A stretch of DNA of 64,000 bases, taken from assembly GCA_964016885.1 (NCBI GenBank), contig OZ024742.1, positions 278,318,001-278,382,000 on the forward strand, in the 5' to 3' direction. The DNA is from Eledone cirrhosa. Lineage: Eukaryota. The notes below the pieces were generated by a model that was given only the letters and a program-made list of their open reading frames with translations, had not been told where the DNA came from and did not search any database. The stretch's first letter is position 1, and every line of letters starts with the position of its first letter. The position numbers were made by a program, and so were the translations under genes. Shown here one piece after another: positions 5,884-63,560 of the stretch.

Positions 5884-6310
5884 TAGAAAGCCCTGACATT
5901 TATATTCTCCATCAGACTGGCTGTTCATCTAGAAAATAACATAATATTATTAATAATTGTTTCTACTTTTGGCACAAGGCCAGCAATTACTCAGTACATT
6001 ACTGGTACTTTATTTTATCGACCCCGTAAGGATGAAAGGCAAAGTTAACCTTGGCGGGATTTGAACGCAGACCATAAAGGGCCATAACTCTTTGCTGCAA
6101 AGCATGGCGTCCGACTCTCTACTGATACTGCTAATCCGCCGCTGTGAAACAGAAAAGGCGTATCATAAAGTAATATATGGTTATAAAGAAGAGTTATTGA
6201 TAAGTACAGAGAGTTGTTATTAAAGATGGGAAAAGGGAAACGATAATGTAAGCATGGTAAAGAGAGATTGCCGGAATGGGGATATTATGACAGTATATAA
6301 AGCTTGGAAA
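5884..6310 (+). mobile_element. R4/Dong-like RT fragment interrupted by a SINE
   Basis: Homologous to 4230-4390 on both sides of the SINE at 5952-6143; includes YGYKEELLIS. Confidence 0.55.
5952..6143 (-). mobile_element. tRNA-derived SINE, family A
   Basis: Reverse complement of 34333-34520: A box, B box, then ctttgcctttcatccttacggggtcgataaaataaagtaccag and an (AAT)-type tail. Confidence 0.92.
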
Positions 6311-9660: not shown

Positions 9661-10437
9661 TATTTCTGAATATCCTTTGACAGAATCTCATACTATTGAA
9701 TATTTGAGACACTGTACATAAACAAATCTCCTCTAATAAAAGCAGTATATCAAACGTCACCATGTCAAAATTGAAATATTCAATAACACGGCAAGATAAA
9801 GCGGTGACAAAAGGAAGCCATATTTATATTGGAAGAGACAAGTAGGATTCACCTAATCCCTCATTACGGTTTTGTTTAGCTCTGGCATCATTAACACATT
9901 TTCTGAATCAAATCACCAATAATTATTACACTTAGTCTGAACAAACTATAAACAATTTTTGATATTCTTTCTCTTTTATTCTATTACTGGTTTTCTTCAT
10001 TGAAATGTGGCCATATTGAGACATCGACTGAAAGTAATTTAGTCAATTCAATAGAGCACATGACTTATTCATTTCAGATCTGGTACGTAGGATATCGATC
10101 TCTTTTGTCGAACAGTTAATTTACAGGGCATAAACACGCACACAAACACACACATGCACACACACACATACACACACACACACACATATATACATATATA
10201 TATATATATATAGACCTGGTGGTCACTGATCTGTCCAGTTATTTTGTCTACCAGCATATCAGGAAAAAAGTATACATTTTCTATATATTTTGTCCGAGGA
10301 GAACCTGTTTTGCTTTATGTTATACATAAAAATTTGTATCTTCGAAATCTAAACTATAAAAAAGGAAGGTCTGCGGGATTGTGTACGGTTTATTTTTTTT
10401 TTATCCCGTTAGTAAAATAAGTTGGATTACTTTGAAT

Positions 10438-10542
10438 AAATAATTGTTTCTACTTTTGGCACAAGGCCAGCAATTACCCAGTGTATTACTGGTACTTTAT
10501 TTTATCGACCCCGTAAGGATGAAAGGCAAAGTTAACCTCGGC
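10438..10542 (-). mobile_element. SINE family A, 3' half
   Basis: Near-identical to the family A core and tail. Confidence 0.9.
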
Positions 10543-11029
10543 AGATAATAATGAATGAATATTACATAACTTATCTACTAAATTTCGTAAACAAAAATAA
10601 TTTCGTAAAAATAAATAATTTAAAATTGACTTCTCAAAGTTGCACTTCCGGTATATCGTTGCCATCACCACCACCACTTCAACTACCATATATATAGAAA
10701 GAGAGTGTGTGATGTCAGCACTTCCGGTGGCGATCACTTAAATAAACGTACTAGTTTTCTGTCAGTAATTTTCTCCTAATGCAGTTTATATATAATATCG
10801 TCTTTTTTTAATATATCATGGATTACGTTACAGATTACATAAGACAGTGTAAATTTCTGTTTATATTGTGTCAATTTCTGTTTATATTGACAATTACGAT
10901 TTTATGTGATGTATCATATCTACATGTATATATACATGCGTATAATATCAATACATGCGTATAATATCAATATACACACTCCACATGCTAGCAGAAAACC
11001 ACCCAAAAGGTGGTTTTTCTGCTAGTATA

Positions 11030-11221
11030 TATAATTGTTGTCTACTTTTGGCACAAGACCAGCAATTGCCCGGTTTATTACTGGTACTTTATTTTATCGA
11101 CCCCTTAAGGATGAAAGGCAAAGCTAACCTCGGCGCGATTTGAACTCAGATCATAAAGGGACGTAAATCTATGCGTCAAAACATGGCGTCCGACTCTCTA
11201 CCGATACTGCCAATCCACTGC
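11030..11221 (-). mobile_element. SINE family A, full length
   Basis: Matches other copies from tail to tRNA head. Confidence 0.92.
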
Positions 11222-11376
11222 TAGTATATATAATGAAATAAAGAGAGATAATATAAAATATATATCTTTCGAATATTACTATTAATTACTATTATATATA
11301 TATATATATAATAGTAATTAATAGTAATATTCGAAAGATATATACTTTATATCATCTCTCTTTATTTTATTATATA
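11222..11376. repeat. AT-rich palindrome centred on a (TA)n run
   Basis: aaataaagagagat...tatctttcgaatattactattaattactatta mirrored by taatagtaattaatagtaatattcgaaagata...atctctctttattt. Confidence 0.85.
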
Positions 11377-11502: not shown

Positions 11503-11586
11503 TATATATACATGCCTACATGCATACATACATTTAAGTAACTGCCGAACTAAGAGTGAGAAATGAAATTTCGTTTCATTCTATTC

Positions 11587-11659
<73 letters not shown>

Positions 11660-11860: not shown

Positions 11861-11901
<41 letters not shown>

Positions 11902-11948
11902 AAGGAAAAGCGAAGTAGTTTCAGATGTTCAAGTCTTTTAATAATAAT

Positions 11949-12024
11949 GCTGTGATATATATATTTCAATGACGACACTGGCCACACTGTTCTGTATGCG
12001 AGTGCCGCGACATCGTCAGACAGC
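11949..12024 (-). ncRNA. Type I hammerhead ribozyme (inverted copy)
   Basis: Reverse complement of 12075-12148 with intact CTGACGA, GAAA and TC; one extra TA in loop 3. Confidence 0.8.
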
Positions 12025-12074
12025 TTGTTACATAATAAGGTTATGTTTCCGTTATGTAACCTTATTATGTAACA

Positions 12075-12148
12075 GCTGTCTGACGATGTCGCGACACTCG
12101 CACACAGAACAGTGTGGCTAGTGTCGTCATTGAAATATATATCACAGC
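12075..12148 (+). ncRNA. Type I hammerhead ribozyme
   Basis: Stem I gctgt/acagc; core CTGACGA at 12080-12086; stem II gcgacact..cacac/gtgtg..agtgtcgt; GAAA-tatata-TC. Predicted cleavage after 12143. Confidence 0.85.
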
Positions 12149-12291
12149 ATTATTGTTAAAAGACTTGAACATCTGAAACTACTTCGCTTTTCCTTATTCG
12201 ATATTTACTCCGTCACTCCTATGTGGAAAAAGTACGTTGAGTGCTTGAATTGAATTGCATCAATATTTACCCTAAGTATATATATATATAT

Positions 12292-12996
<705 letters not shown>

Positions 12997-13028
12997 AGAT
13001 CAAAAGATGGTTATAAGAGTTCCATGTA

Positions 13029-13095
13029 TTTTATTATGCGCATTTCAAAAACAAATATCATAATGCAATAACATTTGTGTTTTCATCAGATAAAA
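13029..13095 (-). ncRNA. Type I hammerhead ribozyme (inverted copy)
   Basis: Reverse complement of 13226-13290 with a 6-bp stem I ttttat/ataaaa and intact core. Confidence 0.8.
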
Positions 13096-13225
13096 TAGGA
13101 AGACATGATATGAAGGTTAAAAAGCACTTGTGAATAGTGCAGTTTTAAATCAACATATATGATATGTTGATTTAAAACTGCACTATTCACAAGTGCTTTT
13201 TAACCTTAATATCATGTCTTCCTAT

Positions 13226-13290
13226 TTTATCTGATGAAAACGCAAATGTTATTGCATGATGATATTTGTTTTTGAAATGCGCATAATAAA
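13226..13290 (+). ncRNA. Type I hammerhead ribozyme
   Basis: Stem I tttat/ataaa; CTGATGA at 13231-13237; AU-rich stem II caaatgttat/gatatttg; GAAA-tgcgca-TA. Confidence 0.8.
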
Positions 13291-13416
13291 TTACATGGAA
13301 CTCTTTTAACCATCCTTTGATCTTATATATTATTTATACTCTAGTCCTACAAACTGTAGAGTGCTTCTTATCCGATATCTGCATTGCTTTATTGTACTAC
13401 AATAAAACTCACCTCC

Positions 13417-15929: not shown

Positions 15930-17015
15930 TACATATGTATGTTTATATATATATAAACATGTAAACATGCCCCAGCATGGTATCAGCCAGATGGCTGGAA
16001 CAGGTAAAAAAGTTAAAGATATATGAAAAATCAAGAATAATGATTTATCTATAATGATATGAGATTGTATTACTATAATCTCTGTAATTGATAGAAGTTT
16101 TATGAAAGAAAAGAATCTGGAAGAATTTAGACAATGCAGGAATCGATTAAGTAGTGAATTTAATGCTATTAAATGAACAATATATTTCTTGTTATTTTGA
16201 ATTTTAAACAAAGCGTTGACAAGAATAAACTGGATAAATGTTAACGTGTTCAAGATGCACTCGAACACTTGACTAATTGTTAGAGTCATTAGAACGTTCG
16301 ATATTATTGTTGTAGCCAAAAAAGGCATCAACGTCACTTTGGGGACACAAAGTTTCCTTCGTTTTATCCTTTATCTGAAAGAGATGTATTTGACTGAGGA
16401 AAGGATTTGTTTTCATGCTCCTTACCCTTTCTTTAATATGTGATAGGCACCTCAGTGTCGCCATACAGACCAGGAATATAACTGAAGTAAAAAACAAAAA
16501 AAAAACAAACAAAAAATCATCGAAAATAAAGGTTCGCTTTTATCCTTTCCGGGTGGACAAAAAAAGTCCAGGAGCGGCCGATTGACGGAATTGTTTAGAG
16601 TAAAACGAGAGGCTTTGCGGTATCTGATCCAAATCTGTACGTTCAGAGTTCAAATCCCACTTCATTCTACTAAGGCATGCGACAAGCAGAACATTTATAT
16701 ACTTATAAAAATGTTTATATAAATATATAAATTTTTATTACCTGACCACCATAGAACATATTTACTATAACCTGATAACCTGATCTTCTCCACTGTTACA
16801 CTTAGCTGGCTTTAGCCAATATATATTCACACAGAATTTATTGATTCCACCTCTGTGGCTGTCGTCCGAATGAGGATCCTTAACGGCATGTTAGTATCTA
16901 TGACAACAAGATATATGTTACCACTTTACAAACGCACACCCATCTTGTTCACGCCTGTCAAATCCAAAATAACCTTGCATTGACGGGTTTGTTATTCGGA
17001 GATGGTCTGTAACAA

Positions 17016-17205
17016 CAATAATTGTTTCTATTTCTGGATCAAGGCCAGAAATTATTCCAGTACATTACCAGTACTTTATTTTATCGACCCCTTAAGGATG
17101 AAGGGCAAAGTTAACCTCGGTGGGATTTGAACTCAGACCGTAAAGGGGCGTAACTCTATGTTGAAAAGCATGCCATCCAAACGTCTACCGATACTGCCAA
17201 TACAG
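17016..17205 (-). mobile_element. SINE family A
   Basis: Full match to family A. Confidence 0.9.
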
Positions 17206-17554
17206 CAACAATAATACCGACTTCGCAGGCCATCTCAGAATCAAATATTTTCTCTTATCGAATTATAATAAACAAAGTAAAAAGTTCAAGTTACAATTTG
17301 GATTGTGGTTATACATGCACACACAAACACGCATATCCCCCCCCCACACTCACATACATACACACTGACATACACACATATACATATATATATATATCTG
17401 TGTCCGTGTGTATGAGGGAGTGTGTATGTATCTATGTATGTATTTTGACACGCTAACTAAAATATAACTGACGACGTGCAGACGTACACACCAAAAAGCA
17501 AATCACCAATATATGGAAGACTTCATATCGGAGTCACATCTATTTGGAACAGAT

Positions 17555-19145: not shown

Positions 19146-19190
<45 letters not shown>

Positions 19191-19196
<6 letters not shown>

Positions 19197-19700
19197 TATG
19201 TATACGTCCATACATATTAGTGTACAGACGTACAGTAGTATGTATATATTATATACATACATGCACACATATATATATATGTACGTATGGGTTTACCGAA
19301 CATTTATTATAATGTTTGGTTTGTTTGTAAACAAACAGCCCGAATTACGCCGTGCAGTGCTCTGCAACAATCGTCGCCCTTTTGTTCAACACTGACACAG
19401 GAACGATGTACTAGTTTCAAGCTTATTAGCTATCGTCAGCATCGTATACCTTTCTGTCAGATGATTGAACGTTTGAAAGTATATACTTTCCCTATGCATA
19501 TTAACGGCTGAGCCGCCTAATTTGCATATCGAGTAAGTTAGTCGGCCGGGCGTACCGAGAACGATAAATGGAAAAGAATGAAACGAAATTTTATTTCTCA
19601 CTCTTAGTACGGCTGATACCTAAATATAAGTATGTATACGTACATACATATATGTATATAGACGTACAGTAGTATGTATACAGTAGTATGTATACAGTTG
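19191..19700 (-). mobile_element. Candidate non-LTR retrozyme: ~434-bp monomer plus terminal redundancy
   Basis: tataagtatgtatacgt...agacgtacagtagtatg occurs at 19191 and 19625 (period 434); contains an intact HHR; no coding capacity; (TA)n flanks. Confidence 0.7.
19403..19445 (-). ncRNA. Type I hammerhead ribozyme
   Basis: Minus strand: acgatg CTGACGA t agct aata agct t GAAA ctag TA catcgt. Perfect 6-bp stem I, palindromic stem III actagt, GUA cleavage triplet. Confidence 0.88.
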
Positions 19701-19719
19701 TATACATATATATATATAT

Positions 19720-19808
19720 GAGTGCTTCGTGCAAGCTTCGAATATTGTTTTTTCGTGGATGATGGCCGACCGCCGCAACTTCGATTTTACTAACTTCTTC
19801 CAATCTTT
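19720..19808. repeat. Family Z partial copy, inverted relative to 20377-20465
   Basis: agtgcttcgtgcaagc...aacttcttccaatct is the reverse complement of 20377-20463. Confidence 0.88.
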
Positions 19809-19835
19809 TATATATGTATATATAATATATATATG

Positions 19836-19920
<85 letters not shown>

Positions 19921-19963
19921 GATATATTAACAAATGGAAAGTATATTTATAAAACCATATTTA

Positions 19964-20024
19964 TTTCATTATACATATATCAAGGACACCAAGTTAAATT
20001 ATGGTGTGCTTTCATCAGATAAAA
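19964..20024 (-). ncRNA. Decayed hammerhead related to element 3
   Basis: ttttat CTGATGA aag-c-acacc...ggtgt-c-ctt GATA tatgta TA atgaaa; GAAA mutated to GATA. Confidence 0.6.
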
Positions 20025-20209
20025 TCTAATATAGATCAGTTTTATAAATAAATATTGACATACCCTTAAAGAATGCGACCATTTATGCTGGAAGCTCCCG
20101 GATAGTTTCCATTTGTTAATATAACGTATTTTTACTCCAATAATTTGTTGAGTGCTTTATAACAGTTATAAAAATATTTGCTTGTTTTATCCCAACAATT
20201 TAAGTAGAA

Positions 20210-20364
<155 letters not shown>

Positions 20365-20376
20365 CATATATATATA

Positions 20377-20610
20377 AGATTGGAAGAAGTTAGCAAAATC
20401 GAAGTTGCGGCGGTCGGCCATAATACACGAAAAAACAATATTCGGAGCTTGCACGAAGCACTCAATAAGAAGATATCGATAAATCGATAAGTTACATCTT
20501 AGAGTAATAAACATACGTTAAATAGCGTGACAAATTAAAAACTGTGGTTAAGGGGACAAAGCCACAGAAGCCACCAGAGCAACGGAAAAATACAATCAGT
20601 TTAAATACCT
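20377..20610. repeat. Family Z insert
   Basis: (TA)n-flanked ~230 bp; related to 11660-11860, 19720-19808 and 26787-27025. Confidence 0.7.
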
Positions 20611-29674: not shown

Positions 29675-30068
29675 CATACATATATATATATACGTACTAC
29701 GAACATATATACACATATATACATATATATATATATCATATATATAATATATATAGTACAAACAGAAGAAAAAATATTATTGTATCAGCAGAACTAATAA
29801 TACAAATAACTAGAGCTGAACTGGAATAACATACACCAGCAGCAACAGCAGCAGCAGCAGTAGCAGCAGTAACAACAACAATAACAACAATAACAAGATG
29901 TACAACAACAATACCAATATTACTAATAACAAGAACAATAGGAACAATGACTACGAAACAAGTCAAACAATGAATATAGCAACAACAATAACCAGTTACC
30001 TACACAACAACATAGATAGCAACACCGCAACTACAGAACATTTTAATGAAATATAAACGACATAGAAA

Positions 30069-30427
30069 ATAATAATTGTTTCTACGTTAGGCACAAGGCC
30101 AGCAATTACCCAGTGCATTACTGGTACTTTATTTTATCGACCCCGTAAGGATGAAAGGCAAAGTCAACCGCGGCGGGATTTGAACTCAGATCGTAAAGGG
30201 ACGTAACTATGCTGGAAAGCATGGCGTCCGACCTTCTACCGATACTGCCAATCCACAATAATAATTGTTTCTACTTTTGGCACAAGGCCAGAAACCCACC
30301 AGTGTATTACTGGTACTTTATTATATCGACCCCGTAAGGATGAAAGGCAAAGTTAACCTTGGTGGGATTTGAACTCAGAATGGTAAGGGCAGTAACTCTA
30401 TGCGTCAAAGCATGGGGTCCGACCCTC
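30069..30427 (-). mobile_element. Two tandem SINE family A copies
   Basis: Both match family A (30069-30255 and 30257-30427). Confidence 0.92.
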
Positions 30428-30764
30428 AATAATAATAACGAAAAGAAACAGTAGTAAAGAAGAGAAAGGAGAATAACAAGTGCAATTTCACAAATCTACA
30501 AATTTACAAAGTAGAAAAAAAAAAAAAAATCTACAATTAATCAATAATAAGAACCATAACATCTACAAGAATATCGACAACAAGGATAACAACAATGATA
30601 GCAATTATAACAAGTACTGCAAAATTGCTACTTAACATCTCAAGGGTGATAGAGACAAACAGTCACATAAACCTTCTCTCTCACCTTAAAAATGTCACCT
30701 ATATAATGACCAACAATTACAGCTTTCCTAAAGCCAGATGACTGGATACCTATCTATTTATCTG

Positions 30765-34332: not shown

Positions 34333-34520
34333 AGGCGGTGGATTGGCAGTATCGGTAGAGGGTCGGACGCCATGCTTTGAAGCATAGTTACCTCCCTGTA
34401 TGATCTGAGTTCAAATCCCGCCGAGGTTAACTTTGCCTTTCATCCTTACGGGGTCGATAAAATAAAGTACCAGTAATGCACTGGGATAATTGCTGGCCTT
34501 GTGCCAAAAGTAGAAACAAT
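34333..34520 (+). mobile_element. SINE family A, full length (reference copy)
   Basis: A box tggcagtatcgg, B box gagttcaaatccc, core ctttgcctttcatccttacggggtcgataaaataaagtaccag, tail ggccttgtgccaaaagtagaaacaatt. Confidence 0.93.
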
Positions 34521-34946
34521 TATATATATATCACTTCTCAACGATATAAATTGTAAACTAAATGACATGCTTCAGTTTAAGCAATGTATTCTACTCTTCT
34601 CTCTTCCTTTACCTAGCCCCACTTCAAATGTTATACACACACAACACACACACGCACACACACACACGCACACACGCATACTCAACACACACATGCACAG
34701 ACAACACACGCAACATACACACAACACACACACAAACACACACACATATACACAACACACAACAATCAACAGAAACGCACACATACGTGCACCTATATAT
34801 AATTACACGATTTAAATTCTCTCAGTAAGTCTCCGCCATTTTACATCTTATATTCAGTCCTTCTACTTTCCTTTTCTCCCTCCTTTTTTTAATTCATATA
34901 AATCGTTTACCAAAACATCTATCTAACTATTTATCTATGTATTTAC

Positions 34947-35939: not shown

Positions 35940-36021
35940 TTGGGTCATCAAGTATGAAATTTGTAGCAATTTTAAGAAAAGAAACGAAATTTCTACAAAT
36001 TTAATACTTGACGATCTCCAA
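35940..36021. mobile_element. ~80-bp hairpin element (MITE-like), copy 1
   Basis: ttgggtcatcaagtatgaaatttgtag...ctacaaatttaatacttgacgatctccaa in (TA)n. Confidence 0.8.
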
Positions 36022-36034
36022 TATATATATATAC

Positions 36035-36083
<49 letters not shown>

Positions 36084-36105
36084 CACATATATATATATAT
36101 ATATA

Positions 36106-36180
36106 TTGGATCGTCAAATATGAAATTTGTAGAAATTTGTTTTTTTTCTTGAAATTTCTACAAATTTCATACTTGATGAC

Positions 36181-36184
<4 letters not shown>
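36106..36184. mobile_element. ~80-bp hairpin element, copy 2
   Basis: Same arms; loop is the reverse complement of the copy 1 loop. Confidence 0.8.
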
Positions 36185-36214
<30 letters not shown>

Positions 36215-36218
<4 letters not shown>

Positions 36219-37002
36219 TAAAGTAGGTCCTTCATCAGTGATCTTCCCACCATCCTTGGTATTTCTTCTCTTTAAAGATCATATACCTCCGGTTGGTGCG
36301 AGTAACGGCTAAAGAAAGTCGTTGGAACACGTAAATAAAGGTAACAGCGAGAGTGTAAACAAACAAAGATGGTGAAGCAATGAAAAGTGAGGAAGAACGA
36401 GTCAAGTCCCAAATTTCCATGAATATAAGTTCGGTGAAATCGTGAACGAGAGAGAATAAAGACCATCAAACCTGGATGGAATGTGAGCAAGGAAGGAATT
36501 CCGCACAGGTCTAACGGGAGGAAGAAGGAATCTAGTCTGTGAATTCGGTGAACATAAGTTCTGTGAAATCGTAGACGAGAGAGAGAAAAAAGGCGAACCG
36601 ACCTGACGAAGCGTGCGAAAGAAAAGAATTACGCAGAGGTCAAACGGGAAGGAGGAGGAGGAGAGGTAGTAACAGAGAGTGAGTGAGTGAAGGGTGAGGA
36701 AGAGGCTAACAGAGAGAGTGACTGTTAGAGAGGGTAAAGATACAGAGAAAGAGGAAGCAGTAAGAACGAAATAGACGGGTCACAGCGGGGGAAGAAATAT
36801 GTGTAAATATGAGAATAAACGTGCTGCGTGGTTGCAAATGGGTTACATATGAATAAAGTTAGTCCTTCATCAGTGATCTTCCAACCATCATTGGTATTTC
36901 ATCGCTTTAAAGACCATATACCTCCGGTTGGTGCGAGCAACGGCTAAAGAAAATCGTTGGGACACGTAAATAAAGGGAACAGCGAGAGTCTAAACAAACA
37001 AA
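36215..37002. mobile_element. Non-coding element with ~150-bp terminal direct repeats (period 635 bp)
   Basis: 36215-36367 matches 36850-37002; internal ~130-bp tandem duplication at 36420-36660; (TA)n flanks. Confidence 0.85.
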
Positions 37003-37025
37003 TATATATATATATGTATGTATAT

Positions 37026-37094
37026 AAGTATGAAATTTGTAGAAATTTTAAGAAAAAACACAAATTTCTACAAATGTTATACTTGACGATCCAA
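37026..37094. mobile_element. ~80-bp hairpin element, copy 3 (left arm truncated)
   Basis: aagtatgaaatttgtagaaattt...ctacaaatgttatacttgacgatccaa. Confidence 0.78.
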
Positions 37095-37097
37095 TAT

Positions 37098-37167
<70 letters not shown>

Positions 37168-37170
<3 letters not shown>

Positions 37171-37247
37171 ACTCGTCAATTATGAAATTTGTAGAAATTT
37201 GTGTTTTTTTCTTCAAATTTCTACAAATTTCATACTTGACGATCCAA
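37168..37247. mobile_element. ~80-bp hairpin element, copy 4
   Basis: Same arms, oriented like copy 2. Confidence 0.8.
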
Positions 37248-39389: not shown

Positions 39390-40035
39390 TCGACTCCCGG
39401 TGTGCATTGCGCAGTTATCCATCGGAGGACGAATGTCACAGTCTTCGTAGTACTGGTTTTCATTCCTATCGTGTTGCACCCATCGGCAAACCTATTGTTT
39501 TACAACGAGTTCAATAGTATCATTGCGTCTCCAAATTCTAGTCAATTGATCCTATACCCAATGGCCTTAATACCACCTCTAGTCCGACTGCGCCTGTTAA
39601 TCATATTCATAAAGAAAGAGAACAGGAGAGGAGAGAGTACGCACCCCCGGGCGGATTCTAACATGCACATTGAATGGTTTCGAGGAAACACCATTTTTCG
39701 AACACAAATAATACAGAATTTGTATTGGGAATTCAAGTCAGCCAGAAGCTGTTCATCGATCTTATATTCCTACAGCATCTTCCACAACAGGTCCCGTGAA
39801 CGCAGTCATATGCTTTTTCGAGGTCCACGAAACAAGCATATCCCTCTTGGCAATACTCTCTCGATTTCTTGAAGACCTTCCACAAAGTGAATATTGGATC
39901 TGCTGTGTGACGGCCGGGACAAAAGACACACAGTTCAAGAGCTAGCTTGGACTCAACAATATCCCTAAAAACCTCCATCAAAATCTTTGGTCTACTCAAT
40001 GGCTTCAAGATAATTGAAAGTGTATTCTCACGGAT
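39390..40035 (-). mobile_element. RTE-clade LINE RT fragment
   Basis: PGRHTADPIFTL...CFVDLEKAYDCV...GCVLSPLLF...RFADGCNTIGMKTSTTKT with frameshifts. Confidence 0.9.
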
Positions 40036-40082
40036 TATTTCCCCTGCTGAGAAAAGTATAGTCAAAATATAGTCAAATAACA

Positions 40083-40300
40083 CTAATTGTTTCTGCTTTC
40101 GGCCCAAGGTCAGCAATTTGAAGAGAAGGGGGAAATAGATTAAATCGACTCCAGTGCGTGACTGGTACTTTATTTTATCGACCCCGTAAGAATGAAAGAC
40201 ACAGCTAACCTCATCCAGATTTGTACTTGGAACGTAAAGAGCCATAATTATACGTTACTTAGCATATTCACCGACACTATACGGATACTGCCAATCCACA
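40083..40300 (-). mobile_element. SINE family A (diverged)
   Basis: Family A core and tail. Confidence 0.85.
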
Positions 40301-43446: not shown

Positions 43447-44830
43447 GAGGTAACAAACAGGGTGTTTGCACTGACCCAGAAGTGAGCCGAGTGCAAACTG
43501 TCCCTGAAAGGTCGGGCGGAGGTGGCGAACACTTATATAGCATCAGTCATCTACTACCGCCTGACCGTTGTGCCTTGACCAAGGGAAACGCTCGCCAAAA
43601 TGGAGCGTGCACTCTTCCAATTCCTTTGGTCGAAGCGGGCTCCTATGGAGAGGAGATCCATCTGCTGTCAACACCCTTCCAAAGGAGGGCTGGGGATGCC
43701 GTGGCTAATGATACCTAAACACGCATTAAGGCTACGGCATCTCCAGTTATTCCTCAACGGTCAACCGGTGTAGGCCCCATTTGTGAGGCGAGTCTTTCCC
43801 AGACTCGTCTCACTCACCGAGCTGCAATCCTGGGTCAAGCAAAGATCGAGAAAACTGGGCGCCTGGCACACCGAGTGTGCCCATGCGCTCACGGCTCTCT
43901 GGCAGGGGGACCCGGCTGTCAGTGGAGAATTCACCTCGTCATTCTATAGAGGGCTGGTGGTTAGCAGGTGCGACGACGTCCTCGGAGAGGCCCTAGGCAT
44001 GGAGGAAGACGAACTGGCCAACCTGTTCGGTAGGACATTCAGCCCGGGACCCATGGATAACTTCCAAATGTCTCTAGCCTGGCAGTGCTACCTAGGGGCT
44101 CTGTCCGTTCGAGAAAGGCTCTACAGACACGGGCGCCCGGGTAGGGACCCCTCGAAAAAGATCTGTCCCAAATGCGTGTGCAACGAGGAAACCGTTGCAC
44201 ACGCATTGGTACACTGCTCAGGCATTGCCGATCTGTGGGGCTATGTCGAACAACTGCTGTCAAGGGTGGGACCGATCCGGTTGACCACCGAGTCTATTGT
44301 AACGATCAAGCCGCCTCCCCTCTTCAAAAACGAAGGAGAGGCGGCGTTTCTGTGCATAATAGCCATGGCGAAAGAGGTTGTATGGTGGACGCGTCTGAAA
44401 GGACTGAGGTCAGACACCTTTCTCTCTGGCCAACAACTGGTCCGTTTCTTCCGATATCATTTCGGAAGAAGGATCAGGATGGAGAGAGAGGTGCTGCACC
44501 CCAGCCGTTTTTATGAAAGATGGGTGAAAGTGGCGAGAATGCTCTGTGTGAATGGGCCTTTACTCTACATCAGACTATAGGTGAGGAAGATGAAAGATCA
44601 AGGGAGCACCCCCCTCTCTGTGCTCCTGAGGAGAAGGGTTTCACACTTTTTTTCGGGTGTTGAAGATTTTGTTATTAAATTTATTTTTGTTATATTTTCT
44701 TTTATTTTTATATCTTGTTATTGCCTCCTCCTTATTGAGGACGCCTTTTTATGTAAACTCCCCCCATTGTACTTGTCCCACTTTTTTTATGCCCTGGTGG
44801 CAAATAAAAAGAAAGTTATCTATCTATTAT
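43447..44830 (+). mobile_element. 5'-truncated Tx1/L1-clade LINE (ORF2 C-terminal part and 3' UTR)
   Basis: KLSLKGRAEV...FLW...KGGLGMP with stops, then ORF 43783-44580; aataaa and a degenerate tatc tail. Confidence 0.9.
43783..44580 (+). pseudogene. Tx1/L1 ORF2 C-terminus with CCHC zinc knuckle
   Basis: AWQCYLGALSVRERL...CPKCVCNEETVAHALVHCSGIADLW; upstream part broken by stops. Confidence 0.85.
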
Positions 44831-45518: not shown

Positions 45519-46176
45519 ATGTGTGTGTGTGTGTACGGAGAGAGAGAGTAAGAGAAAGAGAGAGAATATATGGAGAGGATCGTGAGGACTATGCGAATAA
45601 AGAAAGCACCTATTATAAATATGCATAACCCACGAATCAATAATAGATTTGAACTTTATGATGCAGAGTGATTATTGTAACTTCTCGGCGTCATACAGTC
45701 ACCGTGTGGAAAGTTCGTGACCACAGAGCGTTCCGTTTTTCTGCGTTCATCTCTCATTAGAAAGGGCCTTGTGGGCTGAGTCCTCTAGCAGGCCATGAAA
45801 TATCATGTAGAAATATATTGGCTAAAAACATTATTTTGTTTTTCTCTGTCATTCTCTTACACCAGTATCATCTTATATTTCTATCTACATTGTACCAGCT
45901 TTCTGAACACCCTATTATGTATTACATGTCATACACTACTTCACATAAACTATAGCGAATATATATATATACAGTATTTACGTATCGAGAAAGAGAAAAA
46001 AAGGGGAGGATAGGTGATGCATATAGTTATTTGCCAAGTAGCGTATGCCAAAGGTGCTTGATACTAGTGCCGGCAGTATTAAATATTCGAAGTGTTAATA
46101 TTTAGTGGGCTAGAGAGTTAGCAGAGCGTAAGCACGTGGGAAAGTAAAAAAATCGGAGAATAGACCGTTAAAACAG

Positions 46177-46216
46177 CACCTACGTACGTTTCGCCCAGTT
46201 GGGCTTCTCAAGGGTA
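46177..46216 (-). ncRNA. Type I hammerhead, U3-A8 core variant
   Basis: tacc c TTGAGAA gccc aact gggc GAAA cgtacg TA ggtg. Confidence 0.7.
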
Positions 46217-46506
46217 TAAAGAATCAAAAGTGTTCCCTATATTGCCCGGAAAGAGTTTTGGGGGTTAAATCCACATCAAGGTTCATTGCTCGCAAAAATA
46301 GCTTGTTTTGATTTTGCAGCAGGTCAAGGGAGGTAACTCTGGCCGGTGTTAGGGCAGTCTTTCCCGGACAATTTTTTTTTTTTTTTCGCCGCATCTGTTT
46401 GTCTGAGGCTGGGTCTGGTATGCAAGGATTCTTCCCTGGGTGTTATTTTGCAGCGCCTGCCCGCCGGGGTGTTAAGACTTGTTGCAGGGAGATCCGGTGT
46501 ACGGTT

Positions 46507-48480
46507 TCACTCCTCATCCTTAACACATCTGAAGAAGGATATTTTTAAGCGATGTGTCAAACTTATCGCTGTTTCAGCTCTGCTGTTGATGAGCTCGTGG
46601 GGTGCAGTTATGATGTGGTAGAGCTCCATGAGGCAAAGATCGCATTTCCTCTTGAAGTTGTACGGTGCAGCCCTACCGACAATCTCCCAGTGCGTGGAGA
46701 AGCTGATGTTTAAGTCCTTTAGTGATGTGATGTAGTCCGCGAGCGAAGTGGAGTGCCTTAGTTTTCTATTTGTGAAAGAGTGGAGATGTGTTCGAAACCT
46801 AATTTTGAACGGGCCGGAGGTAGCCCCTATATAATGTTTAACGCTATTGTGGCTAGTAATAGTGCATCTATATATAACCCTATCAGTCAAGCAGTATCCT
46901 CTAAGGAGGCAGCGTCCTCTGTCGCGGCAGTTGCAATTTCTGTCGCGGTTCCGTCTATTTCCCACGGTAAGGCTATCATTGTTGCTGCCTACGTTGTTAC
47001 CTACGCTACCGCAGCTGTCGTTAGCACCATTACAACCCACAGCACGCAGGGTGGTGCGATTGTTATTCCGCACGTCATGTCCTGCATGTTCTCCAGTCAT
47101 TTCGCGGTTATGCTGGTTGCGTCTACGGATGCCGTTGTCAACACTATTGGATGCTGCCAGGGAGTTGTTAAGGCCAATATAGTTATTGTCAGGTGTAAGT
47201 GCGTCTGTGTCGAGGTGCTGTGTCTTGGTGATCTTACTGTGGTTCGTTGTTCCTATGATGTCTGCTAGGTTAGGAGTAGTAGAGAAGGATATTTTTATAT
47301 TGTTCCTATTAAGAATTTTTCTATACCTTTGGTTGGGCGGGAAGTTCTTCTCTAAGGCTTCGAAAAACATCCGGTGTATGTTGGAGGCCACACTCCGAGA
47401 GTATGGGGGGGGGGCATAGTACGTTACGGTGGCGATTACGTGTCCTTGTACTTTTGCTACGGGTGGTTCCATCTAGGTGACCGCTCTTATGTGTGTTAAT
47501 GCGCAGTCACCCGTTCGGTGCCCCTTTCACTTTATGCTCGGGTGCACTCTTCCTACCTCTTCCATGTTTATGTACACGAAGATGTTGGTTGGAAGGCGTT
47601 GGTAGTAGGCCGTCGCCTTTGTTGGTTTTGTAATAGGGGAATAGTTCGAGTAATCTACAGTGTTCACCGTCGCCGGGGTCGTGATCTTTAGTGCGGTTAT
47701 CTATTCTATTATATCCGACTTCAACGAGGTCGCCGCGTAATCGGTTATAGGTATGGCTTACTATAACGTTCGTTTTATGAGGGGGGTGGTTTCTAGAGCT
47801 AGCGTTAGGGATGTAGGAAATTCCTCGGTTAAAGCCGATGCTTATCAAGGCCCTATTGTAGTAATCTGCCGCTTGGTTGAAGATATCCTCATTAGCGGAT
47901 AGCCTCAAGATTCTATGTGAGATACTATAGACTATGGAGTTGAGAATCTGCTTAGGGTGGTTGGAGGCATAATTAATATAAGAGAGGCACTCTCCAGGCT
48001 TATGGTATGGCTTGTATAAGCCCGTACTCAACTCCAGGGTCACGTCCAGGAAGTTGACAACCCTGTGGTTGAGGTCCATAGTTACGGATAGGCCGTATGA
48101 CTTGAAGAACCTGTGTATATGTTTGTTAAGGTTCTCTCTCCTACGGGGGCTATGGTTCCTAACGGTAAACAGGGCGTCGTCCCTATATACACCTCCTTGT
48201 AGGGCCGGTATCTCTTCCCTAAGCATATGTAGGAGGTATATCCCGACCAGGTCAGTTGCTTGCGCTGAGTCACTGGACCCCATCGTGACATCGAAGTTAT
48301 CAGGACGGTTGGTTCTGGTCCAGTGGGAGCCTTCGAACTGGATAATGGTTCTACGCGCCGCTAGAATTATGTCTATTTCTTTTTTAGTGAGGCTAGTGTT
48401 AGATCTAGCTAAGGTAAGTGCCTTATTTAAGAGTATGGGGGAGATAGAGGCGTAGTAACTATCTATATCAAACTGGATGA

Positions 48481-48486
<6 letters not shown>
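46507..48486 (-). pseudogene. Penelope RT-GIY-YIG ORF, disrupted
   Basis: One in-frame TGA at 47507-47509 (the frame continues LRINTH...RNRHRNVL) and a frameshift at the G-run near 47405-47414. Confidence 0.88.
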
Positions 48487-48516
<30 letters not shown>

Positions 48517-48528
48517 CACATACACACC

Positions 48529-50240
<1,712 letters not shown>

Positions 50241-50242
50241 AA

Positions 50243-50400
50243 TATTATTTTGCTTTCCATGCCCATGATTATTCCATTCAGGGCGAAACGTACGTAGGCG
50301 CACTATTATATAAACATGTTTTAACGGTTGTAAACTCTTTGTATTCATTTCCTTTATAATCGCTCTGCTTATTTTTTCTCGCCCACTAAATATTGACGCC
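50243..50400 (+). mobile_element. Inverted pseudo-LTR at the 5' end of Penelope copy 2
   Basis: ttgctttccatgccc and taaactctttgt.ttcatt are inverted matches to 48644-48710. Confidence 0.8.
50260..50300 (+). ncRNA. Type I hammerhead, A3-U8 core variant
   Basis: tgcc c ATGATTA ttcc attca gggc GAAA cgtacg TA ggcg; first stem II pair mismatched. Confidence 0.55.
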
Positions 50401-50489
50401 TGTAATATTTAACCCTGTAGGCACGAGTATTGAGCACATATGCATAAACTATTGGCAACTAAATATATGTATCGCCCATCTTTCCATTT

Positions 50490-50593
<104 letters not shown>

Positions 50594-51601: not shown

Positions 51602-52159
51602 TAATATACATTCATACATATATATTCTATTCTCATGTAGACCATTCTGTTACGTTAAATTGATCAGTTAATGAAAGTGATTCATGCGAAAACCTTGATT
51701 GATAATTCGAAGCTAGCTTTACATGAAGCAAATGAGTCCTTTGAGATGTGATATTTTGTCTATTATTAATTGTTACTCTCCTAGTAATTATGTTACTGAG
51801 AATTTGTGCAAATTACTGACTATGACATGGCTGTGTGGTTAAGAAATTAGATTCGCAACTGCTTGGTTACATGATCGATCTCATTGCGTAGCACCATTGT
51901 CAATTATTTTCTAGTGCAGGCTGTGAACAATATCAATACATGAACGACTTCTATATGAGTAGAACTGTTTGGCTCTTAATGATTTCATACGAATGAAACT
52001 GTTCTAGTTAGTTTTATTCGACCATGGAGTTCTGTGTATTTTGTTTGTTTTCAATTTTCAAAAGATTTTTTAAAGGGTTCCTTGATAAAAAAAATGTTTT
52101 CGTTCTTCCTTGCTTTCGTTCGTTGTCTTCTCTTTGTTAATCATCCTAATTTTATTATT

Positions 52160-52550
52160 AGAGCGTCAGACACCATGCTTTGTAGCATAGAGTTATGGAC
52201 GTTCTGAGTTCAAATCCCACAGCGGTTAGGTTTGCCTTTCATCCTTACGGGTTCGATAAAATAAAGTACCATGAGTTGATTTAATCGACTCCCCCCCCCT
52301 TCAAATTTCTGGTCTTGTGCCTAAAGTATTATTATTATTAATATTATATATATAAAGGGCGGTGGATTGGCAGTATCGGTAGAGGGTTGGACGCCATGCT
52401 TTGACGTATAGAGTTACGGCCCTTGCCATTCTGAGTTCAAATCCCGCCGAGGTTAACTTTGCCTTTCATCCTTACGGGGTCGATAAAATAAAGTACCAGT
52501 AATGCATTGGGTAATTGCTGGCCTTGTGCCAAATGTAGAAACAATTATTA
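52160..52550 (+). mobile_element. Two SINE family A copies
   Basis: Partial copy 52160-52330 and full copy 52357-52550. Confidence 0.9.
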
Positions 52551-53691
52551 TTATATATATATCTACTGCGGCCTCACTTTCGATTTAAACCGATTATATA
52601 TATATATATATATGATCATGATGAATATGTTTATTTGCTGAGAATTATATATGAGTAATGAGGGACAATGTATATGACTGCTAAATGGTTTCTTCTTTTA
52701 TTCTGTTACATATTCTGCTTTTGTCGATATTGCTTCTTAACCAACAACTGGCCAGCCCTCTTTCAACCATAACCAAATATACCATCGTTTCTTCTTCCAG
52801 AAACTTGAGGGAAATTTGGCAGTTATTCCTAGCATATCAAACTGCATAGAAACTCGCACAGCCTTTCTTTCAGCCCTAGAATGTTAGATAAAAAAATCAT
52901 ATTTTCTTTTTCTTATTGGCTTATTTCGTTTATTTTAAAACAACAGATCAGATCTTTTCCAGCAATGGATAATTATATCTTTTCTTTTCTTTTAACAAAG
53001 GAGTGGAATTTGAGGGTTATTAGGATACTATATCTAACAGGTCAAACAGCTACTCAGGAAGCTTCTCCTTGTCCCTTCACCCTCACTTTCTTCTCTTACC
53101 TACATGACGTATTCTCTTGCTCTAATATATACGGTTGTTTCATCGCAGGCTCCGATAAAATATGTTTCCGTTTGATGAGAATTACAGAGTCAACGAAACT
53201 GTGGCTAGGAATTAGAAGTCTATCTTTACAGGACACACAATCACATCCAGATACACACACACACACACACGCATACAGACACACACACACCCACGCACAC
53301 ATACACATATACACACACTATGTTTTTCCTCTAAGGTAGAATGTTTTATCTTGGTGCTGATAAATAATTCATGGTCTTCTTTCTCTTTTAACTTGATTTA
53401 TTCCGCTGCTATTTTCGGGGACAATTTTCCCCCATTGTTTCTTACGTACACACATCAACTTCAGCATCAACATCAGCATCAGCATCATTGTTCGATGATA
53501 TTTTCGTTTTCCGATTGTATAGGTGTTTATTTTAGCTGTATGTGTCTATATGTATGTTGAAGTGTTTATATTGTTGGTGTATGTGCTTATCTGTATGTGA
53601 CTGTGTGTGTGGGTGTTTGTATGTGTGTGTGTTTTGGATATGTGTGTATATCTGTTGTATGTGAGTATATCTGTGTATGTGTGTGTGTTGT

Positions 53692-54525: not shown

Positions 54526-55350
54526 CGAAGTGTGTCAGAAATGTTCCAGGACTGATGTCACAAAAGATTTATTTCAAACCCAAACTACACACTAAGAGTT
54601 TTCCCCTTCAAAGTAATCCCCCTGGAGTCTAATGCACTTTTCCATCCTTTTCTGTCGAGCTTGCATGCACTCCTGGAAGGATTCTTCCGGGATTCTCCGC
54701 AGTTCCGTCGTCACGGCCTTTTTGATGTCGTCCACGTCTTCAAAACGGATCCCTCAGGGTCGTACTCGAAGATCCATAACTCATCACCGGTGATGACTGT
54801 CTCTAGCAAGTCTGGTTCAGTTTCAAGACGCTCGAGGATGTCCTGACACACTTGCATGCGTTGACCTTCTGGTCATCGTTCAGAAGTTGTGGCACCATCT
54901 TTGCGCAGACTTTCCGCATGTCCAAATCTTCAGTGAGAATCTTCCGGACGCTGTCCCAATTCATGCCCAGCTCATTTGCCATCAGTCGAACAGTCAACCG
55001 ACGATCGCTACGCACCATCTGCCTGACGCGCTCAACGTTGACCTCAGTCCTGGCTGTTGAGGGCCTCTCGCTCCTGGGGTCATCTTGCACCACTCAAAAA
55101 CACGCGAGCGTGACATCTCAGTGCTTCTGGCGGAGTTTTCCCAACTTCAAGTTTGTTCGTTGCTCTGTGCTCATTGCTTGACGACCTGAAACAGAGGACA
55201 TGTATATAAAATTATGAAGAAAAAAGTTTGATCGCTGCAGAGAGCTAAGATTACAGTTACATACTCCAGGGGGATTACTTTGAAGGAGAAAAGTCTTAGT
55301 GTGAAGTTTGGGTTTGAAATAAATCTTTTGAACTTTTCTGACACACTGCG
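54526..55350 (-). mobile_element. Internally deleted Tc1/mariner transposon
   Basis: TA-flanked TIRs cgaagtgtgtcagaaatgttc / gaacttttctgacacactgcg; DDPRSERPST..DRRLTVR..MRKVCAKMVPQLL..VITGDELWIFEYDPE fused to RFEDVDDIK..QGDYFEG, so most of the catalytic domain is lost. Confidence 0.92.
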
Positions 55351-57210: not shown

Positions 57211-58047
57211 GTAACAATAAAGAAAGACAAAAAAGCAAGCAAGCAAGAAAGGAAGACAGAAAGAAACAAAAAGAAAGAATGAAAGGAGGGAAGAAAGAAA
57301 GAAGGGAAGAAAAAGAAAGAAAGAGAAGAAGAAAGAAAGAAAGAAAATAGAAGCCGGTCATCAGATCAGACCAAGGAGACATTGTTTCCATTGGTCTTTC
57401 CATTGCTTAAACTAGCTGTCGGTTGCAATATAGCTTCTATTTCTGGTAAAGGATTTTTTGATCAGCAGTGATGTTGATACGGCTATGTACTGTCACTACT
57501 ACTACCGCGGCTGTTAATGCGGTTGATACTGCTGCTGTTGTTGCTGTTATGCTAATGCAACTGACATTACTGATGATGACGTCCCTGAACTATCATGTTT
57601 GTTTGTTTGTTGCGGTTACTGGCTGTATTTGCATTTGCAGCGGTTGTTACGCAGATGTTTTGGGTATTAAATTACAAAAGATTACCCGAAACTATCATAC
57701 GCTTATTCGAAACCTGTCAGCGTTCTTGTCTCTTTAACCCTTGATGCTATAACATTTCTCATCGATATTCCTCGTTGTGTGTGGACGAGCAAATTCCACA
57801 AACATTGTGGAGCCAGTATTCCTCCTTTTCTCTTGGTCTGCTAGAGAATCGAAAGACAAGCGAAATAAATCTATCACTCTATGGCGAACAGATTCTGCAG
57901 ATTTTGCAAAGAGATTCGCCTTTCTCAAACTTGATGTTAAAATAAATAAACCTTGGAACTGAACATATAAACTCTCATTGGTTTAAAGAGCAAACGATTC
58001 AGCTCAAAATTGTACAGTACCAACATACATAATTATATTTTCGATAT

Positions 58048-58850
58048 AATAATTGTTTCTACTTTTGGCACAAGGCTAGCAATTATCCAGTACATTACTG
58101 GTACTTTATTTTATCAACCCCATAAGGATGAAAGGAAATGTTAACCTCGGCGGGATTTGAACTCAGATCGTAAAGGGACGTAACTATGCTGGAAAGGATA
58201 TCCGACCCTCTACCGATACTGCCAATTCTGGTTTCTTATATAGGCACAAGGCTAGTAATTTCAGGGGAGGGGAAAGTCGATTAAATCGACCCCGGTGCAT
58301 TACTGGTGCTTTATTTTATCGACCCCGTAAGGATAAAAGGCAAAGTTAACTTTGGCGGGATTTGAACTCAGATCATAAAGGGTCACAACTCTATGTTGCA
58401 AAGAATGGCGTCCGATGCTCTACCGATTACTGGCAATCCACCGCCATTAACAATAATAATTGTTTCTTCTTTTTGGCACAAGACCAGCAATTACCCAGTG
58501 CATTACTGGTACTTTATTTTATCGACCCTGATGAAAGGAGGGTGTTAGAAGGTTGAAGGAGAAGGAATGACCCTAAGGACCTTTGGCCATTGGCTATGGC
58601 TCGCTGCTTTGGTGTAGTATCGGTAGAACATCTGCTAGAGTAAAAGCGTTACGAATAATAATAATAAGAATAATACTTGTTTCTACGTTAGGCACAAGGC
58701 CAGCAATTACCCAGTGCATTACTGGTACTTTATTTTATCGACCCCGTAAGGATGAAAGCAAAGTCAACCTCGGCGGGATTTGAACTCAGATCGTAAAGGG
58801 ACGTAACTATGCTGGAAAGCATGGCGTCCGACCCTTTACCGATACTGCCA
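58048..58850 (-). mobile_element. Cluster of four SINE family A copies
   Basis: 58048-58225, 58228-58445, 58452-58530 (partial) and 58670-58850, all in the same orientation. Confidence 0.92.
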
Positions 58851-59123
58851 ATAATATTAATGATTTCTCATTTAGACCACAAGCCCAGAAACTTGGGAGA
58901 TTAAATTGACATCAATCATATTATTGGTGCTGAATTTTACTGTAGGATGAATATCAAAATTAATCCAGACCTAATTTGAACATAAAATCTAAATAATCGG
59001 AATAAAAACAGCAAAGTACTTTATCTGACACTCTAACAATTCTAACAGGAATTGTGAAATTCTATAAAAATTGACTTTTCTCACAATTCTAATTATATAT
59101 ATATACCACTATAATTCTTATTC

Positions 59124-61289: not shown

Positions 61290-62200
61290 TGAAAGGATAA
61301 AAAGCTGTGGCTACCCAATCAACAGAGGAATATTTCAAGGATTCCATATCACCGATGATCTTCTGCTTAACATTAGCACCATTAACTGCGACACTAAACG
61401 GAACTGGATTAGGGTATCAATCCTACAAGAAAATCATTCGTCTTCTGTATATGGATGTTCTAAAATTGTATGCTGCAAACAAAAGACATCTAAAACGCTT
61501 CTACTTACAGTATATGGATTCACAAAAGAAAGATGGAATTTAGACTAGAAACATATGCTAAAGCTACTATGAAGAGAGGAAACTAATGAAAAACACTTAT
61601 GACATTCTTGATAAAGAAATTGAGATAAGAGATTTAGATGAAAGACATACATATATTTAGGAATCAACGAATTAGATAGGGTTCAATATACATAAATGAA
61701 AGTGAAGATTAGAAAGGAATACTACAGATGGATTAGATTAGTACTTAAACCTGAATGCTTCAAGGAATAAGGTAATTAGCATCAATACCCTAGCGATCCC
61801 AGTAGTAAGCTACAATTTGAATATTCCGAACTGGTCACTAAAAGAACTAGCTGGAATATATAGAAAAAACACGAAAAACAATGACAGCATTTAGAATACA
61901 CCATCCAAAATCAGATGTCGAAAGGTTATGCTTACCACGAACTCACGCAGGAAGCGGTCTTAAGCAACTAGAAAACCTTTATAAAATAACTATTAGTGAA
62001 CTACAAAAATATCTAATGAACAACAAAGGAACGTTAATAGAAATAGCTACAAAACATGAACAAAACAAAACATTGTACTCAGTTTTCAAGGAGGCCAATA
62101 AATTAAAAGTAGAAACCCGATTAACAGATAGCTGTGCGGGAAATACAAACAAACAAGAAACAACAACAAAAACTATGAAAACCTTAAAATCCAAACTGAA
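61290..62200 (+). mobile_element. R4/Dong-like non-LTR retrotransposon fragment
   Basis: FQGDSISPMIFCLTLAPL-like segment, LLYMDVLKLYA, INTLAIPVVSY, HHPKSDVERLCLPRTHAGSGL. Confidence 0.85.
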
Positions 62201-62214
62201 GTAAAGGAACGTTC

Positions 62215-63560
62215 TTCGATTCATGAAATTGAAAGATTTTGCAAAACAGTATGGAGTACAGAGAAATCCCATAATGCGAATGCAGAATGAATAAAGAACA
62301 TGAAAGAAACACAATAATTGAGAAATGCAGACTTGGTAAGACATAACTATGGAACAACTGGAGATGGCCCTAAAAAATGGCAACAAATGGAAATCTAGCA
62401 TTGATTAAGTGCCAAACCTCTGATAATCTTTTTTAACTGTACCAGAGATACGTTAGTAAAATGAGCAGAAACGTTGTCGCCGTGGGACCAATTTCTCATT
62501 AACCGTATGATTCTGGAAAACTGTCAGAAGAAGCATAGAAGTTTGAGGAATCTCTTGGATTGAGTTTAAAATTGAATTTGATAGTGTTCCCCACTCATGG
62601 ATTTTGAAAACTTTGGATGTTGTGAAATGTTCTCCAGTAATATCAAACCTCCTGAAATACATGTGTGTATGGAATACAAACCTATCTCCACCACAGTGAT
62701 GGAACTATGAATTCCAGCAGCATAAGTATTAACTGTTTTATATTTCAAGGTGGTACGTTTCCTCCTCTGATATTTTTCATTGCACTCACACTGTTGTCTT
62801 TAACGCTCATCAAAGCAATAAATGGCTACAAAATAGAAAGAATAACCATAAATCACCTGTTTTATATACAAGCCAAAAATAAAAGTGAATACGAAGGATT
62901 GTTGAAAACAATTGAGGTGTTCAGTGGTGATGTAAGGATGGAATTTGGATTGAATAAATGCACCAAAGCAACAGTCAAGAAAGACAGAATAACAAGCACA
63001 AGTTCATTGGAAATAGATGTGAAGGAACTAGAAAAGGAACAAACCTACCGATATCTAAAGATCAATAACAACAGCAGAGTATACATCATGTCAGCCTGAA
63101 AGAGTGAATCAGAAAAGAATGCTATCGGAGAGTACGAGCTGACTTGAAAACAACTCATCCCAAATAATAAAACATCTAATATAAATGCGCTTGCAAGCCC
63201 AATTGCCACCCATAGTTTCAATATCAGAAATTGGAACGTTAATGAAATAAAGAAAATGGACACAAAATTAAGGAAATTTCTGACCTACATAACCCAAAAG
63301 CAGATATGCATATGTCTCTATCTCTCTAGACAAAACGAAGATAGAGGAATGATTCAATTTGAACTGTCATTCAAAATATGAACCATTGGCGTCGAACAAT
63401 ACCTTAAAACTACAGATGACTGGATGGTGAACATATGTTGCAGTTCATGAAATGAAAAAGAGGTTACACTTAATCACAAAGGAAAGTAGAAAGTTTGCGG
63501 AAGAATTGGCAATATATTCTGAAAATGATGGCGACTCTGCAATTAAAGCTGCAGAGGAGA
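62215..63560 (+). mobile_element. Second R4/Dong-like fragment
   Basis: FDSVPHSWI, IFQGGTFPPLIFFIAL, INHLFY, DVRMEFGLNKC, INALASPI, LYLSRQNEDRGMIQ; many stops. Confidence 0.85.

Follow-up and report, generated by a model that had tools for sequence, protein, structure and literature searches.

A 434-bp hammerhead-bearing repeat in the octopus Eledone cirrhosa as a probable non-autonomous derivative of Hydra-clade Penelope-like retroelements

A short repeat with a type I hammerhead motif, identified in Eledone cirrhosa, is probably a non-autonomous derivative of a Hydra-clade Penelope-like retroelement (PLE) that would be copied in trans into (TA)n, whether or not by way of RNA circles. The window in which it was analysed is a stretch of 64,000 nucleotides (GCA_964016885.1, contig OZ024742.1, positions 278,318,001 to 278,382,000, forward strand), and it holds three loci of the family, named here copy A, copy B and fragment C, which share a non-repetitive core at E values of 4e-48 to 4e-17. 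The copies terminate at one of two recurring places: end 1, at the 19191/19625 boundary (copy A and the right arm of copy B), and end 2, at 19564/19565 (the left arm of copy B and fragment C). The features, in window coordinates, are as follows.

11504..11593, plus strand: fragment C, about 90 nt across the monomer junction, running to end 2 before (TA)33
12292..12613, minus strand: left arm of copy B, spanning hammerhead core, junction and tail as far as end 2
12614..12829, plus strand: right arm of copy B, inverted, head to head at the CUGA of the core, running to end 1, without the tail
19158..19194, strand not given: (TA)n target into which copy A runs at its 3' end
19191..19624, minus strand: copy A, the ORF-less unit of 434 bp with 37% G+C, from alignment and run coverage
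19386..19471, minus strand: predicted extended helix I enclosing the hammerhead, from a fold of 19380-19480
19403..19445, minus strand: type I hammerhead motif with a predicted cut after 19409 (GUA), from a motif scan and comparison with the Hydra table
19565..19624, minus strand: 60-nt tail between the two recurring 3' ends, from the ends of four arms and run contigs
19625..19717, minus strand: partial upstream repeat of the 3' part of the unit, a partial tandem resembling a pseudo-LTR

The outline of copy A given in the initial annotation, a unit that restarts after 434 bp (19191 and 19625) and has no ORF, is borne out. At that offset 19621-19717 aligns with 19187-19280, 82 of the 94 aligned positions being identical, and the 5' end of the repeat piece merges into (TA)n. 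The piece scores 88 against the start of the unit and 91-96 against the arms of copy B, compared with 53 at most for unrelated TA-rich windows of 150 nt, and the match is therefore more than microsatellite likeness. Copy A measures about 1.2 units, with the partial tandem forming a pseudo-LTR as in Penelope-like insertions, and the head-to-tail monomer junction that marks non-LTR retrozymes is present in copies A, B and C. When the sense strand of the unit is read as a circle, its longest Met-started frame has 37 codons, and no stop-to-stop frame of at least 110 amino acids lies wholly within the unit on either strand. The unit lacks the RT plus GIY-YIG ORF of an autonomous PLE and is therefore non-autonomous; it is short, non-coding and low in G+C, as non-LTR retrozyme monomers are. 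An octamer motif, for which the variants listed show no change, lies at 19520-19527, 80 nt upstream of the hammerhead, and the octamer at 19527 occurs three times within the window. A possible role as an snRNA-type promoter element, as in newt satellite 2, gained no support from a literature search.

The hammerhead (19445-19403) comprises a helix I of 6 bp, CUGACGA, a 4-bp helix II with U on either side, GAAA, a palindromic helix III of 2 bp and the GUA triplet. A scan for type I-like hammerheads returned seven motifs in the window and none in any of 30 block-shuffled windows, and the motif in the copy A unit has an intact core, as is typical of non-LTR retrozymes. The fold of 19380-19480, which predicts the extended helix I, has a z-score of -3.4, with none of 200 shuffles as stable. 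The earlier description of a "perfect minimal" hammerhead is right as to the type I motif and loose as to the two adjectives: where a G10.1-C11.1 pair would stand there are flanking U residues, and the motif does have a short helix III. Rfam reported no hammerhead at the gathering score within the window and none at E ≤ 10 over 19150-19750, where its 57 matches fell below the gathering score and were mostly microRNA models on TA repeats. The 20-nt hammerhead motif had no match in metagenome, viral and prokaryote contigs. The lowest-energy fold of the monomer mispairs the hammerhead core with helix III, and co-folding of two hammerhead copies did not produce the canonical dimer fold. Because helix III is short and palindromic (PMC4209133), the hammerhead of the unit is likely to need a second copy to cut.

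Copy B is a head-to-head palindrome, its two arms starting from a common CUGA. It contains an inverted 5'-truncated copy at its 5' end, a hallmark of Penelope-like insertions. On the left, 12292-12417 matches 19564-19682 across the junction (110/118) and 12365-12610 matches 19196-19445 (219/240), while the inverted arm, 12614-12829, is identical to the unit at 192 of 216 positions. The left arm carries a duplication in helix II. Judged by their sequences, both arms would be dead as ribozymes in cis, because the 5' strand of helix I is missing, the GAAA of the core is changed to GCAA in the right arm, and the locus folds as a single hairpin. Fragment C, read from 11593 to 11504, is identical to the unit at 76 of 88 positions and to copy B at 95.7% over 92 nt; it may be a local copy of copy B, and hence perhaps not independent of it.

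All four arms end in (TA)n, the target expected of a Hydra-clade derivative, and they do so at end 1 or end 2, which lie 60 nt apart on the hammerhead strand. An optional tail between two fixed ends is a Penelope-like trait; end 1 is known from the window alone, while 40 contigs of sequencing run X1 also leave the unit into (TA)n at 19564. The initial annotation had described copy B as circularly permuted. Its start near 19565, its passage across the junction and its run to 19439 all stand, whereas the random permutation does not, since 19564/19565 recurs in copy B, fragment C and the X1 contigs, and the start of copy B is thus not of random phase. A start at a fixed end does not demonstrate an RNA circle as template, and the apparent permutation is best read as a Penelope tail, that is, as a second fixed start of reverse transcription. 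What survives of the proposed circular or multimeric template is its length: copy A, of about 1.2 units, and the family-wide junction point to a template longer than one unit, and random phase no longer serves as proof of a circle. The three arms that bear the hammerhead all continue across the predicted cut after 19409, so their templates would have been either uncut or re-joined there. The annotation had set its circular reading against copies with fixed ends attached to a long RT-coding Penelope body; the fixed ends were found, and the listed read data gave no sign of the long coding body.

The extent of the family was assessed in public sequencing data. Four of the 18 listed runs (X1, X4, X6 and X16, the last a RAD run; the list includes no RNA run) were compared with the exact monomer at 80% likeness, coverage being assessed over 19294-19624 with 19191-19293 skipped as repeat, and in 4/4 runs this interval is covered throughout. 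Of the 15 rows for runs containing the family, 12 had small shares, X4 and X6 being among these. In X1, 7,862 of 16.3 million contigs match the unit. Bins over 19296-19624 have summed depths of 0.13-2.1 million in this run, where the long single pieces have 5-13; the figure is 1.1-1.5 million upstream of the hammerhead (19476-19535) and up to 1.8 million in the tail. From these values we infer thousands to about 10^5 copies, an estimate that allows for up to 31-fold overcounting by overlapping contigs, summed depth not being copy number. The head-to-tail junction occurs in 1,235 X16 reads with an agreement of 0.98. Most X16 reads are less than 95% like copy A, which marks copy A as a diverged copy and makes the 13% difference between its own repeats uninformative on the template. 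The strand changes in 12 of the 15 joints listed (49 in all), some of which may be chimeras, as ligation can produce these in RAD data. Reads begin or stop at 19343, 19519-19522 and 19587-19590, the places of the three AATT sites of the unit, and these positions were set aside as library cuts. X4, which bears another organism label, has low depth and the same variants, and is not taken as a second host.

Among known systems, cited here from the accessible parts of the sources, Hydra-clade PLEs (Hydra-1_Obim, Hydra-2_aJap; Craig et al. 2021, PMC8557442) share with the unit (TA)n targets, a hammerhead near the 3' end, the U-flanked helix II, an ACU...AGU helix III, inverted truncated copies and partial tandems. 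By eye from File S2 of that study, U stands on both sides of helix II in 14/25 Hydra families, giving the unit a Hydra-like hammerhead geometry, and the ACU...AGU helix III is found in 16/25; (TA)n insertion is reported for 26/27 families (PMC8557442). The PLE anatomy described in the same source includes partial tandems, 5'-truncated copies in inverted orientation, (TA)n targets and a tail at just one of the ends, and copy B likewise carries a tail on one arm only. In contrast to Hydra-clade PLEs, the unit has no RT or endonuclease ORF, its helix III is shorter (2 bp), and it has no sequence match to a described Hydra family, in that six of its short motifs are absent from the PMC8557442 supplement as far as that was accessible. 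Two further points count against the Penelope reading: the tail of the unit is 60 nt long as opposed to the 30-40 reported, and the Hydra-1_Obim hammerhead lacks the U/U pattern (PMC8557442 File S2).

Two internal sites serve as starts of reverse transcription in Poseidon of Anolis carolinensis (Frangieh et al. 2024, PMC11167929), the interval between them being the genomic tail; each of the two target strands is cut and extended, and insertion does not depend on cleavage by the hammerhead. The unit resembles this element in its two fixed internal ends downstream of the hammerhead, its tail and its AT-rich targets, and insertion from uncut RNA appears to be a further likeness (PMC11167929). 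Unlike the unit, with its 60-nt tail, Poseidon is autonomous, with an ORF that begins within the hammerhead. Non-autonomous PLEs with pseudo-LTRs and head-to-tail insertions are exemplified by the Chlamys element MRC1 (PMC8557442), to which the unit is similar; however, the Chlamys elements belong to a green-algal clade with an N-terminal EN and have 3' similarity to a known partner, and no such likeness to a partner was found for the unit.

Animal non-LTR retrozymes measure 170-400 nt according to Cervera and de la Pena (2020, PMC7229834) and 51-972 bp according to the 2026 preprint of Li, Clavereau and Pollet (10.64898/2026.07.22.740005), in which solo monomers are counted. At 434 nt, the unit lies above the first range and within the second. 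It shares with these retrozymes its short ORF-less format, a G+C content under 45%, the type I hammerhead with a short palindromic helix III, the head-to-tail junction and co-occurrence with PLEs. It differs in that the copies here lie dispersed in (TA)n as 0.2- to 1.2-mers, have inverted arms and a fixed tail, and at none of the three loci in the window show two tandem hammerheads. The preprint argues that animal retrozymes are non-autonomous PLE derivatives (10.64898/2026.07.22.740005), so that the labels retrozyme and PLE derivative would largely coincide.

A broken Hydra-type PLE is present in the same window (46040-50500, minus strand). Its RT lies at 48487-47510 and its GIY-YIG endonuclease, which has the CxCx5C linker of Hydra, at 47472-46510; a further endonuclease piece, itself diverged, occupies 49868-49083. 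The 3' end has a degenerate hammerhead near 46200, and a related piece, inverted, lies at about 50280-50500. The broken RT plus GIY-YIG ORF as a whole occupies 46510-49868, and by eye the element resembles Hydra-1_Obim as described in the accessible material. Its identification as Penelope rests on 67 homologues and on motifs; Pfam matched none of the three Penelope frames, and one family appeared below cut-off in nine frames. The best local score between the unit and this ORF-bearing element is 22. Since their hammerheads and ends are unrelated, the element shows the kind of enzyme that the genome has rather than the parent of the unit. No parent emerged from the window or, by the six motifs, from the PMC8557442 supplement.

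These observations are consistent with the following pathway. Loss of the ORF would have fused the start of a Hydra-type element to its hammerhead-bearing 3' end. A partner protein would then bind a transcript longer than one unit, nick (TA)n, and begin cDNA synthesis at either of the two ends. Copying through more than one unit would yield copy A, and two cDNAs primed from opposite strands, one from each start site, would be joined head to head to yield copy B; with one arm assigned to each start site, copy B is explained without random phase. The hammerhead would probably require a second copy for cutting. The template of more than one unit could be either a tandem linear transcript or a circle.

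The latter choice leads to the rival that survives best, a working circular-RNA retrozyme, which we consider unlikely. Tandem loci would give multimers, dimeric hammerheads would cut them, circles of about 430 nt would be ligated, and a Penelope RT would copy round the circle from fixed start sites; the enzyme is the same as in the derivative reading, and the difference lies in the circle being the main template. The family-wide junction and the length of copy A beyond one unit are compatible with it, as is the passage of all three arms across the cut site, which a re-ligated circle would allow, and in size and G+C the unit resembles mussel retrozymes of 350-390 bp (PMC7229834). However, two same-strand hammerheads, the criterion used in the preprint (10.64898/2026.07.22.740005), occur at none of the three loci in the window, while the reads and contigs are too short to span the 434 nt between hammerheads; 8/9 of the dimer elements tested in that work did not cut; and cleavage is dispensable for insertion of the Anolis element (PMC11167929). 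In the 40 of 77 variants of the unit that are listed, the hammerhead is changed at N7, in loop II and at a single position of helix I and nowhere else, which agrees with a working ribozyme, but three variable positions of 43, all outside the core, are weak evidence. Similarly, the circularised unit folds at -129 kcal/mol with none of 60 shuffles as stable, a score that is inflated by self-complementary TA/CA repeats; of the 40 variants listed against this predicted fold, 18 lie at unpaired positions, 9 keep a pair and 13 break one, which would support the fold weakly at best. An octopus retrozyme whose 434-nt unit exists as an abundant circular RNA, copied by a Hydra-clade enzyme from two start sites, is possible though doubtful.

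It is improbable that the copies are 5'-truncated ends, or solo pseudo-LTRs, of a long ORF-bearing Penelope, with the closed 434-bp unit as a rare deletion product. Most PLE hammerheads are indeed single truncated pieces (PMC4209133), and copies B and C are truncated. Yet depth over 19446-19535 is as high as elsewhere in 4/4 runs, and contigs bridge the unit from the hammerhead to 19568 and from 19436 to 19577. The share of matches running on into unlike sequence is 0 in X1, 0.03 in X6, 0.07 in X4 and 0.65 in X16. By eye, five of the six X1 loose ends listed are diverged versions of the unit, and the sole exit is (TA)n at 19564. The six listed for X16 comprise three diverged versions of the unit, the junction, an AATT site and a heterogeneous row at 19496 (1,241 reads, agreement 0.54), which lies where a coding body would join and is partly unexplained; we read it as a variant AATT site, another source being possible. 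These statements concern 22 of 521 loose-end rows and 15 of 49 joints, and scattered ends or a rare coding body may be hidden among the remainder.

The readings as a tRNA-derived SINE or as chance patterning of TA-rich DNA are largely refuted: the window is rich in (TA)n and copy A has A-box-like (19515) and B-box-like (19470) stretches 45 nt apart, but loose A-box matches are many (18 within the unit), position 19514 of the A-box-like stretch differs in nearly every other copy, ARAGORN finds nothing and thus no tRNA-like head with A and B boxes, the hammerhead scan was empty in 30/30 shuffles, and the non-repetitive core is common to the three loci.

The window seems to hold several unrelated hammerhead families. 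At 11890-12207 a head-to-head palindrome of another family lies in (TA)n, with one type I hammerhead-like motif per arm (cores at 12019, minus, and 12080, plus) and a long helix II. A third family forms a head-to-head palindrome (95%) at 12982-13338, with type I hammerhead-like motifs at 13089 (minus) and 13231 (plus). The region 19719-20464, an inverted repeat (19720-19807 with 20376-20463, plus (TA)n), abuts the 5' end of copy A and encloses a decayed hammerhead-like motif at 20018 (minus), with GATA for GAAA. CUGANGA...GAAA motifs at 14993 and 25098 (minus) pass the type I scan, and others at 13746, 24657 and 37917 (minus) come from the motif listing. At 35941-37246, inverted repeats nested about (AT)n contain two CUGAUGA motifs (36238 and 36873, minus). 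A pyrimidine-rich end motif shared among the hammerhead families was considered and rejected, being found at 3/91 (TA)n junctions, two of them from the 434-bp family.

Other repeats in the window include a dispersed one of about 200 bp, in at least 10 copies at 85-95% identity (5941-6142, 10434-10542, 11023-11234, 17010-17215, 30062-30435, 34335-34528, 52150-52558, 58044-58892 and others), which may resemble the octopus OK SINE. LINE-like coding remnants lie at 43774-44580 (plus), 39733-40254 (minus) and 61851-63099 (plus), labelled by eye except for zf-RVT, which was found below cut-off at 43774. A mariner-like piece, also recognised by eye, extends over about 54560-55330 and is flanked by 68-bp inverted repeats (54561-54628 and 55263-55330).

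Judged by their listings, none of the papers returned by literature searches on octopus hammerhead ribozymes and cephalopod retrozymes describes such a family, PMC8557442 being the only relevant source. Ribozymes and retrozymes are not mentioned in the accessible text or supplement of the O. vulgaris repeat annotation (PMC13282606), nor ribozymes in the accessible part of PMC8967140. The family may be deposited in Repbase or Dfam under another name. The kind of element is already known, and its occurrence here is a moderate surprise.

The origin of Penelope copies that are tandem, inverted or of more than unit length is a standing question. RNA circles made by hammerheads have been proposed as the Penelope template (PMC4209133), but the one in vitro system did not need the hammerhead to cut (PMC11167929). 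A family that is short, abundant and ORF-less, and whose ends are mapped, offers a convenient test case for deciding between a circle and a tandem transcript. If the circular-retrozyme reading were true, this would be the first cephalopod retrozyme and a direct link between the PLE tail and a circular template. Unclassified octopus SINEs amount to 1,279 families and 249.7 Mb (PMC13282606), and by our own division from that source recent insertions average 391 bp. Under the circular-retrozyme reading, part of these 250 Mb would be ribozyme elements driven by Penelope. The present family suggests that octopus short repeats filed as unclassified SINEs merit screening for hammerheads.
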